From NCBI GenBank assembly GCA_003645385.1, contig QNEY01000001.1:1-53406 (forward strand): a DNA stretch of 53,406 nucleotides. Direction: 5' to 3'. Below are positions 5,062 to 13,341 of this stretch, one piece after another. The stretch comes from Gammaproteobacteria bacterium (GTDB taxonomy: Bacteria; Pseudomonadota; Gammaproteobacteria; Nitrosococcales; Methylophagaceae). The first letter of the stretch is position 1, and each line of letters begins with the position of its first letter. A program made the translations under genes and the position numbers. The notes beneath the pieces are model-generated. The model was not told the origin of the DNA. It saw nothing but the letters and a program-made list of their open reading frames with translations, and did no database searches.

Positions 5062-5073
5062 AAAGGAAGTCAA

Positions 5074-6135
5074 ATGACAGAAGAAACGAAAGAACTTGTA
5101 TTGTTCAACGCTGATGAAATCAGTCCGCAATTATTGTTTGAAGGTGAAACACTTGGCAATATGCTTGAAGATATTGCAGTCCAAGCTCGGTCAGTTATTC
5201 GTGACATATCAACTCCAGCTGGCAGAAAGAACATTGCTTCACTTGCTGCAAAGATTGCAAGAACAAAAACAACGATTGATGGCTTTGGAAAAGCTCTTGT
5301 GTCAGATTGGAAAACAAAGTCAAAAGCTGTGGATATTGAACGCAAACAAGCAAGAGAATTTTTGGATGCTTTGAAGGTTGAAATTCGTGACCCCTTGACT
5401 GAATATGAGAATAAAGAAAAGCAACGTATTAGTGACCATGAATTTTATATTTCAACAATACAAGGTGCTTGTGAAAGCACAGATGGACTTTCAGTTGAAA
5501 AACTTGAAAAACGGATAATTCTTGCTGACAAAGCCTATGATCGTAAATGGGAAGAGTTTTCAAAAAGAGCAAATGAAATAAAAGATGCTGCTGTTCTGAA
5601 GTTGAACAATCTTATTAATATTCAGAAAAAACGTGATGCTGAAAAAGCAGAACTTCAACGCTTGCAGAAAGCAGAAAAGGAACGCCTGCAAAAAGAACGT
5701 GATGAAAAACTAAAGCAAGAAGCATCTGACAAAGCACAGGCTGAAGCAGAAAAGAAAGCTGAAGTTGAACGTCAAAAACTGCAAGATGAAAAAGATGAAG
5801 CAGATCGCAAATTGAAGCAAGCTGCCATTGATGCTGAAAAAGCAGAAATGAAAGCGGAAATGGAAAAGCAAGAAGCAATTGAAGCCGAACGTGAAAGAGT
5901 TGCAAAAGAAAATGCTGCAAAAGAAAAAGCAGAATTGAAACATGCAAACAACAAACGCAACATTGAAAAAGTCAGACGTGAAGTCAATGAGGATTTGGCA
6001 AAATTCCTGATCGAGTGCTTAAAATTAGATGGAAAGGTGCTGTCAAGTATTAATCTTGACGTTCTGTCTTTGCAGCTAGTGGATTTTATTGACGCTGGCA
6101 ATGTCCGTCATTTGGAAATTAATTATACAAATTGA
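5074..6135 (+). CDS. DUF1351-like coiled-coil protein (recombination module accessory)
   Basis: The N-terminal ~120 aa resemble DUF1351 proteins found next to phage recT. Long KE-rich coiled coil (EKAELQRLQKAEKERLQKERDEKLKQE...). Confidence 0.45.
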   Translation: MTEETKELVLFNADEISPQLLFEGETLGNMLEDIAVQARSVIRDISTPAGRKNIASLAAKIARTKTTIDGFGKALVSDWKTKSKAVDIERKQAREFLDALKVEIRDPLTEYENKEKQRISDHEFYISTIQGACESTDGLSVEKLEKRIILADKAYDRKWEEFSKRANEIKDAAVLKLNNLINIQKKRDAEKAELQRLQKAEKERLQKERDEKLKQEASDKAQAEAEKKAEVERQKLQDEKDEADRKLKQAAIDAEKAEMKAEMEKQEAIEAERERVAKENAAKEKAELKHANNKRNIEKVRREVNEDLAKFLIECLKLDGKVLSSINLDVLSLQLVDFIDAGNVRHLEINYTN

Positions 6136-6149
6136 ATAAGGAAAATTTT

Positions 6150-6563
6150 ATGAACTCATGCAATTTCACAGGAAGATTGACAAACGATCCAGATCCTAAA
6201 TTCACTGGCGGTGGCACGGAAGTTTCAAACTTCTGTGTTGCCGTTGATATGGGCAAAGACAAGCAAGGCGAAAAACAAACTGAATTTGTCAACATGACAG
6301 CCTATGGCAAAGTTGCTGAAACTATCAACAAGTGGATGTCAAAGGGATCTGAAATTGCTGTCACTGGAAAATTCAGAACTGACAGATGGGAAGATAAAGA
6401 GTCAGGTTCAAAAAGAAGCAAATGCTATATCGTGGTGGATTATTTTAATTTCATTGGCAGTAAACCAAAAACAGGATCGAATGAAAATTATAAACCACCG
6501 GGAACTCCACAATCACCAGCAAAAGAATATGATGAAGATGACAGTCAAGCAATACCTTTTTGA
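6150..6563 (+). CDS. ssb: Single-stranded DNA-binding protein
   Basis: OB-fold N-terminus (NFTGRLTNDPD..., VNMTAYGKVAE..., KGSEIAVTGKFRTDRWEDK). Gly/Pro-rich tail ending in the acidic tip DEDDSQAIPF. The ATG at 6150 is preferred over the TTG at 6132. Confidence 0.9.
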   Translation: MNSCNFTGRLTNDPDPKFTGGGTEVSNFCVAVDMGKDKQGEKQTEFVNMTAYGKVAETINKWMSKGSEIAVTGKFRTDRWEDKESGSKRSKCYIVVDYFNFIGSKPKTGSNENYKPPGTPQSPAKEYDEDDSQAIPF

Positions 6564-6565
6564 TC

Positions 6566-6593
6566 TTTACAAATCTATATTTTGTAGTATAAT
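6566..6593 (+). promoter_or_regulatory. Sigma70-like promoter (TTTACA-N16-TATAAT)
   Basis: TTTACA at 6566..6571 and TATAAT at 6588..6593. A second candidate is TTGACT at 6601..6606 with TATTAA at 6623..6628. Sits in the 143-bp gap before the HNH/replication genes. Confidence 0.45.
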
Positions 6594-6640
6594 GGTTATG
6601 TTGACTCTGCAAACTCAATAACTATTAATATTCCTAACTT

Positions 6641-6680
6641 GGGCATTCTAGCCACCTTGCAGGGTCAATCTAGGATGCTC
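6641..6680 (+). other. Leader hairpin (11-bp stem with 2 G-U pairs)
   Basis: GGGCATTCTAG (6641..6651) pairs with CTAGGATGCTC (6670..6680). The loop contains ACCT-TGC-AGGT. No U-tract follows, so it is not an obvious terminator. Confidence 0.35.
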
Positions 6681-6706
6681 TTGTTTGGGAATATACGGAG
6701 AATCAC

Positions 6707-7243
6707 ATGAAAAAATGTAGAACTTGCGGTAAAAAATTGCCTTTGTCAGAATATTACAAACATTCTGAAATGTTAGATGGACACTTAAACATCTGCAAAG
6801 AATGCACAAAGAATAGAATCACAAAACATCGTGAAAACAATATTGATCGCATTCGTGAATATGATAGAAAAAGAGGATTGCTAGAACATCGAAAGTCTGC
6901 AAATAGAAAACGCTCTGTAAATTACAATAAACTAGAAACAACAAGGGCAAGACATAGAAAGTGTATAGCAAGAAATAAAGACAAGATGGCAATGTCAGCA
7001 ATATCTTACAGGAAAAAATATCCAGAAAAATACATTGCTAAAATAAAAACTGGCAACGCTATGAGAAATGGCAAATTAATAAAGCAGCCGTGTGTTAAAT
7101 GTGGATCTACTGAAAATATAAATGCTCACCATGAAGATTACAGCAAGCCGTTAGAAATTATCTGGTTATGCAGATTTCATCATGGAGAACGTCACAGAGA
7201 AATCAATGAACAAAAACGAAATAAATTAAAAAAAGTAAAATGA
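6707..7243 (+). CDS. HNH homing-type endonuclease (free-standing)
   Basis: N-terminal CxxC...CxxC zinc finger. C-terminal CVKCGS...NAHHEDYSKPLEIIWLCRFHHGERH is a typical phage HNH core. GGAG SD upstream. Confidence 0.85.
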   Translation: MKKCRTCGKKLPLSEYYKHSEMLDGHLNICKECTKNRITKHRENNIDRIREYDRKRGLLEHRKSANRKRSVNYNKLETTRARHRKCIARNKDKMAMSAISYRKKYPEKYIAKIKTGNAMRNGKLIKQPCVKCGSTENINAHHEDYSKPLEIIWLCRFHHGERHREINEQKRNKLKKVK

Positions 7244-8013
7244 AACAAAGGAGTATAAAAGTGGCAAAAAGATTCACAGAAAAAAACAAATGGCATGACA
7301 CTTGGTATCGTGAACTGTCACCGAATGCAAAAAATGTGTATGAATATATGTGTGATAATTGCACGATTGCTGGACTGTTTGAAATTGATCACTGGCTGAT
7401 GGGAATGTTAATCGGCTTCTCTGAAGATGATGCAAAGAAAGCATTTCAAGAATGTTTGAAAGATAAAAAGGAGGGATCCATTAAAGTTGAGGTTGTCAAG
7501 GGCAAAGCATTTCTTTGGAACTATGTCAGACAGCAGCAACCGAAAGGATTGTATGACAGCAACAAAGCACACAAGGGATTAATTCGTGAGCTTGAAACAT
7601 TGTCATCAAAATTTGAAGGTGCAAAACTTGCACTTGAATGGGGATATAAGGAATCAAGCAAAGATCCAAAAGATGACAGCTTGAAAAGCAAAGTCGGATA
7701 CACAAAAGACTTTGAAAGGTTCTGGCTGGCATACCCACAACGCATTGGGTCAAACCCTAAGAAGCCTGCCTATGACAAGTTCAAGCAGATCATCAAGAAA
7801 GGTGAAGCAACAGCTGATGACATGATCACTGGTGCAAAACATTATGCTGATCACATGCACAAAATTGATCGTGTTAATACTGAATTTATAAAGATGGCAA
7901 AAACATTCCTGAACCAACGGGAATTTAATGATTACAAAGATCAAGTGCATCAGCCAGCAAAGATCTTGAGGAAAGAAGAAACTGGCGGCATTTCTCAATT
8001 CGGTGATAACTAA
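7240..8013 (+). CDS. Putative replication initiation / replisome organiser protein
   Basis: Immediately upstream of dnaB and stop-start coupled to it (TAATG). The C-terminal FERFWLAYPQRIGSNPKKPAYDKF motif is common in phage replication proteins. Alternative start is GTG at 7261 after AAGGAG. Confidence 0.4.
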   Translation: MKQRSIKVAKRFTEKNKWHDTWYRELSPNAKNVYEYMCDNCTIAGLFEIDHWLMGMLIGFSEDDAKKAFQECLKDKKEGSIKVEVVKGKAFLWNYVRQQQPKGLYDSNKAHKGLIRELETLSSKFEGAKLALEWGYKESSKDPKDDSLKSKVGYTKDFERFWLAYPQRIGSNPKKPAYDKFKQIIKKGEATADDMITGAKHYADHMHKIDRVNTEFIKMAKTFLNQREFNDYKDQVHQPAKILRKEETGGISQFGDN

Positions 8014-10463
8014 TGAAAGCAAGCAAAACACCGCCACAAAATCTTGAAGCAGAAGCATCTGTGCTTGGCTCAATGTTATTGTTACCAGAACAGATCCCAC
8101 TGATTGTTGGTAAGCTGGATCAGAACGATTTTTATATGACACAGAATGCTTTGGTATATTCTGCCATGCTTCACTTGATTGACAAGAACATCAAGATTGA
8201 TCTTGTCACATTGAAAGAAAGACTTGTTTCATGCAATGAACTTGATGAAGCAGGTGGAATAAAACGCTTGATTGAACTTGAAGAAATTGTGCCACATGCA
8301 CAGAACTTGAAAGAGTATGTGGATATTGTTCACAACTATTCAATCAGAAGGAAAATGTTGTATGCTGCACAGATTACAACCGATCTTGCATATGACGGAT
8401 CAATACCACTTGATGACGTTGTTGATTCTGCACAAAGAGAAATTGAAGCAGTTGCAACAAGATTTGATATGATCAATCGTGGTTCTGGCATTGACAGCAA
8501 AGATCATCTGATGGAAGAAATCTATACTGAAATAAAATCAGATAGCACATTAGACAGATCGACCGGATATATTGGCATTGACTACTCGCTCGGTGGAATT
8601 AAATCATCTGATATGATAGTGCTGGCTGGTAGACCAAGTTCGGGCAAAGCACAGCCCTTGGATGCAAAAGTATTGACACCTAATGGATTTGTATTAATGG
8701 GAAGTTTGAAACTGAATGATTATGTTTTAACACCAGATGGCAGCAAGTCTAAAGTAATTGGCATTTATGAACAGGGAGTTAAATCAGTTTATGAATTGCA
8801 ATTTTCTGATGATTCAAAATCTCAATGCACAGAAGATCATTTGTGGTTGACAACAACACGCAATGAACGCAGATCAAGATTAAGAAAAGATGGAAAAGTT
8901 AGAACGCTCAAGGAAATTAAAAACACATTAATTAGACAAGATGGGCAAGCTGGAAACCATCAAATACCGTGGACAAAACCTGTGGAGTTCAAATCGCAAA
9001 AAGAAATACTGCCAATAGAACCATATCTATTGGGAATGTTTTTAGGTGATGGCAGATATGATAGAACAGTCAAAATATGGAATGAAGAAAAAGATTTGCA
9101 AGATAAAATAATTAGCAAATTACATATTGATGATACTGCAACAATAACAGAACCAAATATAATCAGGATTGAAAGAAAAAAACGAAATAATCAGAAATCT
9201 GAATTTGCTAAAAGTTTAGATGAATTAGGATTAAGCATTCCGGGGTCTGCCTATAAATTTATACCGTCAATCTATTTATACGCTTCCCCGTTTGACAGAT
9301 TGGAATTGTTAAGAGGATTAGTTGATTCTGATGGATATGTTAATAACGGTGCTTTAGTTGAATATTCTACTATTTCAGAAATGCTGAAAGATGATATTAG
9401 TTTTTTGATTCGATCTTTAGGTGGAAAAGTTACAGTAACAGAGAAACCAAAACCACGCTATACCTATAAGGGAGATATGAAAATAGGTAAATTGGCATAT
9501 CGCATTTTCTTTTCATTTCAAAATAATACAGTTCCAGTTTCATCAAAAAAACATTTATCAAGATGGAAAGGACTTAAACGTATAGCAGGTCACGCAATTA
9601 AATCTGTAAGATACATTGGCAAGAAAATATGCAGATGTATTCAAATAGAAGATCATAGAGGATTGTATTTGACAGATGATTTTATCCCAACACACAACAC
9701 AACGCTTGCATTGAACATTGCAAACAATATGGCAATTGCAAAGCACCGTGTGGTGATCTTCACGCTTGAAACTTCAAAGTCAGAAATATACAAAACATTT
9801 CTATCTATGAACGGTGGTGCTTTTAGATTCAAATTCAATCCATTCTGGAAAGATAAGTGGAACAGTCTTAATTCAGAATACACAAACAAAGCCCATGAGT
9901 TTTGCAAAAATCTTGATGTTCAAATTCGTGATGAAAAAGAGCTGTATAGGAATCCCAGAAAGATCAGAAATTATTTATTGCAGCAAGACAGAAAAAGAAA
10001 GATCGGTCTCGTCATCATTGACCAGTTTACGTTGATGAATCACGACCATAATCAGAACCGCAAAGACTTGAACATGGAAATGTCAAGCAACATTATCCAG
10101 AACATGTGCAAAGACTTAGAAATCCCAGTAATACTTTTGCATCAATTAAATAGATCGGTTGAAAAAGATGTCCGGTATCCAAACATGTCTGATCTCCGTG
10201 AATGTGGAGCATTGGAACAAGATGCAGATGCAATCATCTTTCTGTCAAAAGTAATTAAAGCAAATGAGTCAGGTGGCAGAATGTTTGACGAAAAAGGTAA
10301 AGATCGAATTTGCTCAATTGCGAAATCAAAACTCGGTGCTGTTGAAAGTTATTCAATGCAATTGGCAACAGACACAATGACATTCATTGCAGACAACGAG
10401 CAAGAAGAAATGATCAAATTGAAAATGGAAGAAATGAAAGGCACTCTTTCAAAATGGGAATAA
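8013..10463 (+). CDS. dnaB: Replicative DNA helicase DnaB, interrupted by an intein
   Basis: N-terminal PPQNLEAEASVLGSMLL signature. Walker A is split as GRPSSGK / TTLALN. C-terminal RecA-like motifs (VIIDQF, LHQLNRSVE, SDLRECGALEQDAD). The mature extein would be 466 aa. Confidence 0.93.
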   Translation: MKASKTPPQNLEAEASVLGSMLLLPEQIPLIVGKLDQNDFYMTQNALVYSAMLHLIDKNIKIDLVTLKERLVSCNELDEAGGIKRLIELEEIVPHAQNLKEYVDIVHNYSIRRKMLYAAQITTDLAYDGSIPLDDVVDSAQREIEAVATRFDMINRGSGIDSKDHLMEEIYTEIKSDSTLDRSTGYIGIDYSLGGIKSSDMIVLAGRPSSGKAQPLDAKVLTPNGFVLMGSLKLNDYVLTPDGSKSKVIGIYEQGVKSVYELQFSDDSKSQCTEDHLWLTTTRNERRSRLRKDGKVRTLKEIKNTLIRQDGQAGNHQIPWTKPVEFKSQKEILPIEPYLLGMFLGDGRYDRTVKIWNEEKDLQDKIISKLHIDDTATITEPNIIRIERKKRNNQKSEFAKSLDELGLSIPGSAYKFIPSIYLYASPFDRLELLRGLVDSDGYVNNGALVEYSTISEMLKDDISFLIRSLGGKVTVTEKPKPRYTYKGDMKIGKLAYRIFFSFQNNTVPVSSKKHLSRWKGLKRIAGHAIKSVRYIGKKICRCIQIEDHRGLYLTDDFIPTHNTTLALNIANNMAIAKHRVVIFTLETSKSEIYKTFLSMNGGAFRFKFNPFWKDKWNSLNSEYTNKAHEFCKNLDVQIRDEKELYRNPRKIRNYLLQQDRKRKIGLVIIDQFTLMNHDHNQNRKDLNMEMSSNIIQNMCKDLEIPVILLHQLNRSVEKDVRYPNMSDLRECGALEQDADAIIFLSKVIKANESGGRMFDEKGKDRICSIAKSKLGAVESYSMQLATDTMTFIADNEQEEMIKLKMEEMKGTLSKWE
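8649..9698 (+). mobile_element. Class 3-type intein with LAGLIDADG homing endonuclease, in the DnaB P-loop
   Basis: A 350-codon in-frame insert. It starts AQPLDAKVLTPNGF, has block B TEDHLWL, two LAGLIDADG motifs (LLGMFLGDGRY, LLRGLVDSDGYV), block F CRCIQIED and block G IPTHN, followed by Thr+1. Excision restores GRPSSGKTT. Confidence 0.9.
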
Positions 10464-12258: not shown

Positions 12259-13341
12259 ATGGCTATAAATGTTTTATCATTATTTGACGGCATGAGTTGC
12301 GGACAAATCGCATTGAATCGAACCGGAATTGAATACGATAATTACTTTGCTTCCGAAATAGATAAATATGCGATTAAAGTTACTCGAGCCAACTATCCAG
12401 ATACTATTCAGTTGGGAGATATCAGGCATGTTGAAGCTGTTGATTTACCTAAGATTGATTTGTTAATAGGTGGTTCTCCGTGTCAGGGGTTTAGTTTTTC
12501 TGGCAAGCAATTAAACTTTGATGATCCTAGAAGCGCATTATTTTTTGAGTTCGTCCGATTGCTGAAAGAATGCAAGCCTAAATATTTCCTCCTTGAAAAC
12601 GTGATAATGTCTCAAGAAAGTAACGATGTGATTAGCTGTACGTTAGGTGAGATGTTCCCAAATTGCGTGAGCCAAAAACAACTTTTCCAAGCCGGTAGAC
12701 TTGAGCCTATTTGTATCAATTCCGCTTTAGTATCGGCTCAAAACAGGAAACGATTATATTGGACAAACATCCCAGGGCTTACGCAGCCAAAAGACAAAGG
12801 AATCATTTTAGAGGATGTATTGGAAGATTGCTCCAATTCAGTATATCAACGAGGCAGAGGCAATAACAAGGGCGGCATTAAAAGCAATAAAAGCCCTTCT
12901 ATAACATCTAGTCGGTGGGAAGAAAATGTAAAGGTTCCTGTTATTAAAATTAACAATGAACTGATATATAAGCCTCATAAGTCTCAATGTTTAGTGGCTA
13001 ATTATTATAAAGGTAGTGATAATCACGGAATGAGAACCGGCTGTATCGAAGTTGGTCATGCCGAAATAAACGGAAATGACATACTGAAAAGAGTATATTC
13101 ACCTAAAGGCAAATCTCCCACATTGACAGCTATTTGCGGAGGTAATCAAGAAAATAAGATAGCAATAGATCATAAAAGGTGGAGAAAATTAACTCCGGTA
13201 GAATGTGAAAAATTGCAAACTGTCCCGGACAATTACACAAACCACGTAAGCCCTACGCAACGATATAAAATGTTAGGCAATGGATGGACTGTTGATGTGA
13301 TAGTCCACATTATAAAAAGTATGAAAGATTGCCCAGAGTAA
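12259..13341 (+). CDS. DNA (cytosine-5)-methyltransferase
   Basis: Motif I LSLFDGMSCG, motif IV GGSPCQGFS, motif VI LLENV, motif VIII QNRKRLY, motif X GNGWTV, all in canonical order. Confidence 0.9.
   Translation: MAINVLSLFDGMSCGQIALNRTGIEYDNYFASEIDKYAIKVTRANYPDTIQLGDIRHVEAVDLPKIDLLIGGSPCQGFSFSGKQLNFDDPRSALFFEFVRLLKECKPKYFLLENVIMSQESNDVISCTLGEMFPNCVSQKQLFQAGRLEPICINSALVSAQNRKRLYWTNIPGLTQPKDKGIILEDVLEDCSNSVYQRGRGNNKGGIKSNKSPSITSSRWEENVKVPVIKINNELIYKPHKSQCLVANYYKGSDNHGMRTGCIEVGHAEINGNDILKRVYSPKGKSPTLTAICGGNQENKIAIDHKRWRKLTPVECEKLQTVPDNYTNHVSPTQRYKMLGNGWTVDVIVHIIKSMKDCPE

Follow-up and report, generated by a model that had tools for sequence, protein, structure and literature searches.

The question raised by this locus is how a phage obtains a working replicative helicase from a dnaB gene whose reading frame is split at the nucleotide-binding loop. 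The gene lies on contig QNEY01000001.1, of which we analysed a stretch of 53,406 nucleotides (the window); the window is an uncultured tailed phage, and its dnaB is divided within the Walker A loop by an insert of 350 codons. Below we consider what this insert is, to which class it belongs, how the helicase would be matured from the interrupted precursor, and where the element stands among its relatives.

That the interrupted gene encodes DnaB follows from the two domains of its product, an N-terminal domain and a C-terminal RecA-like domain with the Walker A motif. Pfam places the DnaB N-terminal domain at amino acids 7-107 (E 3e-27) and matches DnaB_C (E 3e-40) in two stretches separated by the insert, the larger of which spans amino acids 563-791, while the NCBIfam DnaB models are interrupted at amino acids 213 and 562 of the precursor. 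The match to NCBIfam TIGR00665 (E 8e-74) is under the trusted cut-off of that model because of the insert. In translation, 8649..9698 consists of 350 in-frame codons free of stops, with Lys212 and Thr563 of the Walker A loop on either side (GRPSSGK/.../TTLALN, with slashes marking junctions here and below), and the DNA reads directly as AAA at 8646 for Lys-1 and as ACA at 9699..9701 for Thr+1. The sequence TTLALN at the start of the C-extein completes Walker A, and the remainder of the RecA-like domain also lies in the C-extein. Taking out the 350 codons gives a protein of 466 amino acids containing GRPSSGKTTLALN, in which the Walker A pattern GxxxxGK[ST] is restored.

A preliminary description of the window had claimed both the split Walker A loop and its restoration on removal of the insert, and both claims are borne out by a natural allele. 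A protein search with the precursor found an intein-less DnaB (P0002) that is 466 amino acids long, exactly 816 minus 350. The DnaB spliced in silico aligns with P0002 from end to end with zero gaps and with 390 of 466 residues identical (84%); the counterpart of GRPSSGKTTLALN in P0002 is GRPSAGKTTIALN, so that GRPSSGK-TTLALN of the window faces GRPSAGK-TTIALN. Because this alignment is free of gaps, both junctions of the insert are exactly fixed. P0002 is encoded on a 9.5-kb metagenomic contig (L001) from a related phage, which is syntenic with the window through the genes for a PD-(D/E)XK nuclease, a single-stranded DNA-binding protein (SSB), a replication initiator and DnaB. The extein DNA is 80% identical to dnaB of L001, the flanks read ...GGCAAA/ACAAC... 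in both, and around the empty site L001 reads ...GCTGGCAAA/ACAACAATTGCA...; near the insertion site nucleotide identity to L001 is not clearly higher than elsewhere (0.82-0.90 versus 0.80 overall). The precursor protein was recovered on six contigs, each of at least 50 kb, and a megablast search with the whole precursor gene against 50,697 phage records gave no match. A second intein or a paralogue was sought in the window and none was found. As the intein-less allele, the matching flanks and the breaks in the domain models agree, the insert is a discrete element, present in one phage lineage and missing from its relative.

Structure prediction provides further insight into the nature of this element. 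An AlphaFold2 model of the insert, computed from 55 homologues, has very high confidence: its predicted local distance difference test score (pLDDT) is 94.1 and its predicted TM-score (pTM) 0.92. The best Foldseek match of this model is PI-SceI, the yeast VMA1 intein (E 1e-19, query-normalised TM-score 0.73-0.75); class 3 mini-inteins match over the splicing domain with target-normalised TM-scores of 0.83-0.86, and I-DmoI and I-Tsp061I are matched as well. The insert thus has the attributes of a HINT domain, namely the match to the intein fold, a block B histidine (His64), and a C-terminal His349-Asn350 followed by Thr+1. Taken with the exact junctions against the intein-less allele, the HINT fold and the terminal His-Asn then Thr identify the insert as an intein; a permanent domain insertion was also considered and rejected. 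The splicing domain has no name in standard family libraries: Pfam recognises the LAGLIDADG part only, NCBIfam gives weak matches only, to intein-containing proteins, and PHROG matches the insert to families of terminases, DnaC-like helicase loaders and DNA primases, which we tentatively read as intein-bearing members of these families and not as domains of the host proteins.

Published criteria define class 3 inteins by a residue other than Ser, Thr or Cys at position 1 together with Trp at B:12, Cys at F:4 and Thr at G:5 (the Trp-Cys-Thr or WCT triplet), whereas Ser or Thr at +1 is usual and not strictly defining (PMC2807308, PMC3196547). The insert carries Ala1, Trp66, Cys330 and Thr348 at these positions, and Thr+1 is also present. 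The codons for Ala1, Trp66, Cys330, Thr348-His349-Asn350 and Thr+1 are exactly where the preliminary description had put them (Table 1), and its assignment of the insert to class 3 is supported in that every published sequence criterion finds its residue here.

A more searching question is whether the Trp, Cys and Thr occupy the proper positions of the splicing blocks, as a block alignment might have placed them elsewhere. We recovered the class 3 prototype, the intein of mycobacteriophage Bethlehem (MP-Be), from the phage genome and aligned it directly to the insert: H64/W66, C330, T348-H349-N350 and T+1 align to H65/W67, C320, T339-H340-N341 and T+1 of MP-Be. To compare the element with solved class 3 inteins, a construct from which the endonuclease was deleted was aligned with HMMER. 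Its best match is 6bs8, the DnaBi1 intein of Mycobacterium smegmatis (Msm; E 1e-7), followed by 6rix/6riy, the MchDnaB1 intein of M. chimaera (Mch). The elements H-x-W, RC(I/V)xxxD, LYL and PTHN are in register with 6bs8 and 6rix/6riy, and Cys330 also aligns to Mch C124; the class 1 intein gp41-1 scores nearly as well as 6bs8, the best match among the solved structures. A four-way MAFFT alignment put block F of the mycobacterial mini-inteins wrongly across the endonuclease gap, and the HMMER alignment was used instead. The residues in question therefore fall on their MP-Be and Msm counterparts. Tyr340 aligns with Msm Y128 and is invariant among 118 of 118 relatives.

The same residues recur throughout the family of the insert. 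Two independent protein searches yielded 236 full-length relatives, which we mapped by BLAST with no motif filter. Position 1 is Ala in 218 of them and position -1 is Lys in 227; all 236 have His at B:10 and either Thr or Ser at +1, and B:12 Trp, F:4 Cys and G:5 Thr are each found in 235. As these residues are near-invariant in relatives mapped without regard to motifs, the class 3 signature of the insert is not due to chance. The N-terminal sequence AQPL is also nearly invariant among the relatives.

Several observations weigh against the class 3 assignment. Identity to characterised class 3 inteins is just 24-29%. Block B has Thr at B:7 in a TxxH arrangement like that of class 1, and this Thr is generally missing from class 3 inteins (Kelley et al.). 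Moreover, a class 1 intein that had been given the WCT triplet failed to become a working class 3 intein (PMC7664689), so the triplet alone is no proof of mechanism. Class 3 inteins are described as a monophyletic clade (Tori & Perler 2011, as cited in PMC3196547). On balance, the published sequence criteria support the insert as a class 3 intein.

The preliminary description had also pointed out Hint blocks and two LAGLIDADG motifs, and here Pfam, PI-SceI and Foldseek agree with it, the motifs lying at intein amino acids 127-137 and 220-231. Pfam matches the central part of the intein to LAGLIDADG_3 (E 6e-8) and Hom_end (E 4e-6), and a phmmer alignment to PI-SceI spans intein amino acids 122-300. 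Each of the two motifs ends in an acidic residue, and the Foldseek matches of the model to PI-SceI, I-DmoI and I-Tsp061I accord with the alpha-beta-beta-alpha-beta-beta-alpha fold expected of a double-motif LAGLIDADG protein. Asp134, Lys203 and Asp228 of the intein align with Asp218, Lys301 and Asp326 of PI-SceI, the catalytic residues of that enzyme. Among 118 relatives, the Asp134 column holds Asp in 94 and Glu in 16, and the Asp228 column holds Asp in 108. Thus the intein carries an apparently intact double-motif LAGLIDADG endonuclease of the PI-SceI type.

Table 1. Features of the interrupted dnaB gene and its intein (window coordinates; slashes mark the extein-intein junction)
Feature	Position	Strand	Remarks
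dnaB precursor open reading frame (N-extein, intein, C-extein)	8013..10463	+	816 amino acids, stop codon included; open reading frame list, Pfam, NCBIfam
N-extein, amino acids 1-212	8013..8648	+	gap-free P0002 alignment, NCBIfam model ends, DNA reading
N-terminal half of Walker A, GRPSSGK, closing the N-extein	8628..8648	+	
Intein, 350 amino acids, Ala1 to Asn350	8649..9698	+	
Splicing block A, AQPLDAKVLTPNGF	8649..8690	+	Ala1 in 218/236 relatives; Q2/P3/L4 each in 112-114/118
Ala1, GCA	8649..8651	+	non-nucleophilic
Splicing block B core, TEDHLW	8829..8846	+	aligns to MP-Be H65/W67 and Msm DnaBi1 H65/W67
Thr61 (B:7), His64 (B:10), Trp66 (B:12; TGG 8844..8846)	within TEDHLW	+	
LAGLIDADG homing-endonuclease domain, about intein amino acids 110-310	8976..9578	+	approximate bounds from model secondary structure
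LAGLIDADG motif 1, LLGMFLGDGRY, intein amino acids 127-137	9027..9059	+	Asp134 aligns with PI-SceI Asp218
Lys203, putative endonuclease active site	9255..9257	+	aligns with PI-SceI Lys301; Lys in 106/118 relatives
LAGLIDADG motif 2, LLRGLVDSDGYV, intein amino acids 220-231	9306..9341	+	Asp228 aligns with PI-SceI Asp326
Splicing block F, CRCIQIEDHRGLYL	9630..9671	+	Cys330 aligns to MP-Be C320 and Msm DnaBi1 C118
Cys328 (F:2), Cys330 (F:4, predicted nucleophile), Tyr340	in block F	+	
Cys330, TGT, second Cys of CRC	9636..9638	+	
Splicing block G, FIPTHN/T	9681..9701	+	Thr348 (G:5), His349, Asn350, extein Thr+1
Thr348 (ACA), His349 (CAC), Asn350 (AAC)	9690..9692; 9693; 9696	+	
C-extein, amino acids 563-816 and stop; opens TTLALN	9699..10463	+	Pfam DnaB_C amino acids 563-791; P0002 alignment

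From these features we propose the following path to a working helicase. The dnaB gene would be translated as an inactive precursor, with the class 3 intein separating the invariant Lys of Walker A from its Thr. The thiol of Cys330 would attack the Lys212-Ala1 bond to form a thioester-branched intermediate, assisted by His64, Trp66 and Thr348, and the N-extein would then be handed to the hydroxyl of Thr+1 (Thr563) to form the standard branched ester. Cyclisation of Asn350 would free the intein, and an O-to-N acyl shift would produce a normal Lys-Thr bond, restoring GRPSSGKTTLALN and the 466-amino-acid helicase. The freed intein would act as a PI-SceI-like homing endonuclease, cutting an intein-less dnaB such as that of L001 at the DNA encoding the P-loop, and the cut allele would then gain the intein by recombinational repair during co-infection. 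In our analysis a phage DnaB precursor matured by class 3 splicing, coupled to endonuclease homing into empty alleles, is very probably the correct account of this locus. We infer the dependence of the helicase on splicing through a block F thioester from homology, the chemistry being that established biochemically for MP-Be and Msm DnaBi1: in MP-Be splicing through the block F Cys has been demonstrated and the F:4 Cys is absolutely required (PMC2807308), and Msm DnaBi1, at the same DnaB site, splices by the block F Cys route (PMC6195587). The element is most simply regarded as selfish and mobile, and tolerated in an essential gene. The GC content of the intein is 32.8% compared with 37.8% for the window, within the lowest 1.6% of same-size segments of the phage, which fits horizontal acquisition as a hint.

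A different view of the same catalytic apparatus is that the intein does splice by the class 3 route but has come to serve as a post-translational switch, in which oxidation of Cys330 or its binding of zinc would reversibly hold the helicase as precursor, perhaps with the participation of Cys328 and Cys60. Inhibition of Msm DnaBi1 by H2O2, which acts via the catalytic Cys, and by zinc bound to C118/Y128 can be reversed (PMC6195587, PMC7360933), and the equivalents of Msm C118 and Y128 in the phage intein, Cys330 and Tyr340, are invariant. Additional Cys residues near the active site are common in the family, 211 of the 236 relatives having one at B:6, 169 at B:7 and 144 at F:2; those at B:7 and F:2 co-occur with an odds ratio of 3.0 (p = 2e-4, uncorrected for phylogeny). 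The residues of the phage intein itself at these positions are Cys60 (B:6), Thr61 (B:7) and Cys328 (F:2), encoded within 8826..8831 and 9630..9638 of the window. However, Cys48, the redox partner that forms the disulfide in Msm, is replaced by Val, B:7 is Thr and not Cys, and the intact endonuclease, low GC content and patchy presence of the intein, which L001 as the closest relative lacks, are better suited to a selfish element of recent mobility than to a domesticated regulator. We therefore regard the switch as improbable for this intein, and we give a similarly low probability to the suggestion that conserved Cys residues around the nucleophile tie maturation of the helicase to the redox or zinc state of the host. 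Were it true, the large family of P-loop class 3 inteins would be a post-translational gate on phage DNA replication and not purely selfish.

It is also conceivable that the intein is dead or decaying, so that this DnaB is non-functional and the phage uses the helicase of its host, and there is precedent in the inactive class 3-like inteins of phage-derived DNA, such as the class 3-like pseudo-intein Arth_1007 of Arthrobacter (PMC3196547). In Arth_1007, however, the F:4 Cys is missing and the exteins are cut short (PMC3196547), whereas here the reading frame is uninterrupted through 816 codons, all catalytic and structurally invariant residues of the family are present, the exteins are complete and share 84% identity with an intein-less allele that has every DnaB domain, and an identical protein is found on each of the six contigs mentioned above; we consider loss of splicing very unlikely.

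Membership of class 2 (the KlbA type) was examined and rejected, as the WCT triplet is present and residue +1 is Thr. The related proposal of a real intein that follows a class 2-like route, in which the Lys212-Ala1 bond would be attacked by Thr+1 itself, with Cys330 in a supporting, non-nucleophilic role, would accommodate the missing N-terminal nucleophile, as in class 2, and the class 1/2-style Thr at B:7, but it seems to us highly improbable given that class 2 inteins lack WCT and are known from KlbA genes only (PMC2807308, PMC3196547), that the insert holds the full triplet with the F:4 Cys kept in 235 of 236 relatives, and that the F:4 Cys is absolutely required in MP-Be.

Returning to class 3 splicing as the preferred reading, the closest characterised analogue with regard to Ala1, the P-loop and DnaB is the mycobacterial DnaBi1, and it is a better one than the Bethlehem intein. 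DnaBi1 (the DnaB-b site) is represented by the inteins of M. smegmatis (6BS8/6OWN) and M. chimaera (MchDnaB1, 6RIX/6RIY) and by the DnaB intein of M. leprae; a class 3 DnaBi1 with Ala1 sits in the P-loop of mycobacterial DnaB (PMC6195587). The phage intein shares with DnaBi1 its DnaB host, its insertion in Walker A after the invariant Lys, and its class 3 layout of Ala1, His-x-Trp, the F:4 Cys, a terminal Thr-His-Asn and a hydroxyl residue at +1. The two differ in that the DnaBi1 inteins are mini-inteins without an endonuclease whereas the phage intein has a full LAGLIDADG domain, that B:7 is Asp and +1 is Ser in DnaBi1 and both are Thr here, and that Cys48 of Msm corresponds to Val. Identity over the splicing domain is about 24-26%, and the hosts of DnaBi1 are bacterial chromosomes as opposed to a phage.

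The preliminary description had named the Bethlehem DnaB intein as prototype. This holds to the extent that MP-Be is the class 3 prototype and splices through the block F Cys, and that it is likewise full-length (about 341-350 amino acids for the two inteins), with a LAGLIDADG endonuclease, the WCT triplet, Thr+1 and 29% identity to the phage intein. It does not hold for the insertion site. The MP-Be intein occupies 7680..8702 of the mycobacteriophage Bethlehem genome (NC_009878; L004), inside gp10 (7260..9971), and its junctions are SQDQ/PLALNTEV...ILTHN/TKNTF, so that Pro1 follows Gln-1 where the phage intein has Ala1 after Lys. Its host gp10 is now annotated as a terminase large subunit (the TerL1-c site, Kelley 2016), so that the intein is not in a DnaB P-loop, while the DnaB-like helicase of Bethlehem, gp61 (L003, 12500..13321), has 273 amino acids and is free of inteins. 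The historical name 'MP-Be DnaB intein' is thus misleading.

Other phages provide inteins of the same layout, GK/A...HxW...C...THN/[ST], which we checked by hand in three: Clostridium phage phi8074-B1 gp42 (39% identity, junctions GNGK/AQPLYSK...THN/TAW), the helicase of Enterococcus phage 156 (34%, GGGK/ALVDSEP...THN/TTW) and the helicase gp175 of Mycobacterium phage Alice (33%, SGSGK/AEPVSEP...THN/SFC). Like the intein of the window, these lie between the GK and the T/S of Walker A and carry H-x-W and the F:4 Cys, although their hosts are other ATPases and not DnaB. A 2025 survey of actinophages counts the intein of the Alice helicase among class 3 (bioRxiv 10.1101/2025.01.02.630785). We observe in passing that phi8074-B1 gp42 (L005, 2240..3943) and the phage 156 helicase (L006, 1856..4390) each hold an unannotated class 3-type P-loop intein, the genes being labelled only 'hypothetical protein', 'DarB-like antirestriction' or 'DNA helicase'. 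PI-SceI resembles the phage intein in combining a HINT splicing domain with a double-motif LAGLIDADG endonuclease, but it belongs to class 1, having Cys1 and Cys+1, lacks WCT, is about 100 amino acids longer, resides in a eukaryotic V-ATPase, and is 15-18% identical.

The family as a whole is large. Against 1.84 billion cluster representatives the intein matches 17,721 proteins at E <=1e-3, 12,214 at <=1e-10 and 4,073 at <=1e-30, the family size of more than 4,000 at E <=1e-30 being a count of 50%-identity clusters, and 860 deposited phage genomes are matched. The hosts are proteins of the DnaB, AAA_24, PhoH, RecA, AAA/RuvB-like and SNF2 types, with the intein in their Walker A loops. The Lys/Thr position of the P-loop is described as a "classic" intein site (PMC5050341), and the actinophage survey reports 287 class 3 inteins, which switch exteins by way of nucleotide-binding sites (bioRxiv 10.1101/2025.01.02.630785). 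As the closest relatives in both protein searches are at most 49% identical to it, the phage intein forms a separate sequence cluster in an unrelated phage; it is a new, divergent member of a known, very abundant and already described family.

The remainder of the window includes portal, large terminase, head and tape measure genes as well as a replication module, and no deposited phage has a TerL more than 34% identical to that of the window. Three other open reading frames, all on the forward strand, deserve mention. At 6707..7243, between the genes for SSB and the replication initiator and 1.4 kb upstream of the intein, is a 178-amino-acid frame that matches PHROG phrog_2340, 'endonuclease' (E 1e-34), with an HNH-like motif at its end; the spacer between these two genes is about 125 nt in L001 (4630-4756) as compared with 6460-7243 in the window, and the frame looks like a second, free-standing homing-endonuclease insertion. 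At 5074..6135 is a 353-amino-acid frame that belongs to phrog_1376, to which PHROG assigns no function, and gives no match in Pfam; it is missing from L001, where the genes flanking it abut (L001 4312/4307 joins window positions 5068 and 6138). Finally, a 360-amino-acid DNA methyltransferase (phrog_116, E 2e-76) is encoded at 12259..13341, just downstream of the replication module. An identical gene on another contig (L002) carries Pfam DNA_methylase, PF00145, and the enzyme is probably an anti-restriction function of the phage.

The finding adds little to basic knowledge, as class 3 has been defined since 2010, the P-loop site is already "classic", and the DnaB site has been characterised in mycobacteria. 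Its value is in the first place one of annotation, in that the gene encodes an intein-containing DnaB precursor and not a helicase of 816 amino acids. The window and L001 together constitute a natural pair of intein-plus and intein-minus alleles, a donor and a recipient for studies of homing, and the intein itself adds to the pool available for protein engineering a full-length, endonuclease-bearing class 3 intein with Ala1 and Thr+1 from a low-GC, uncultured phage.

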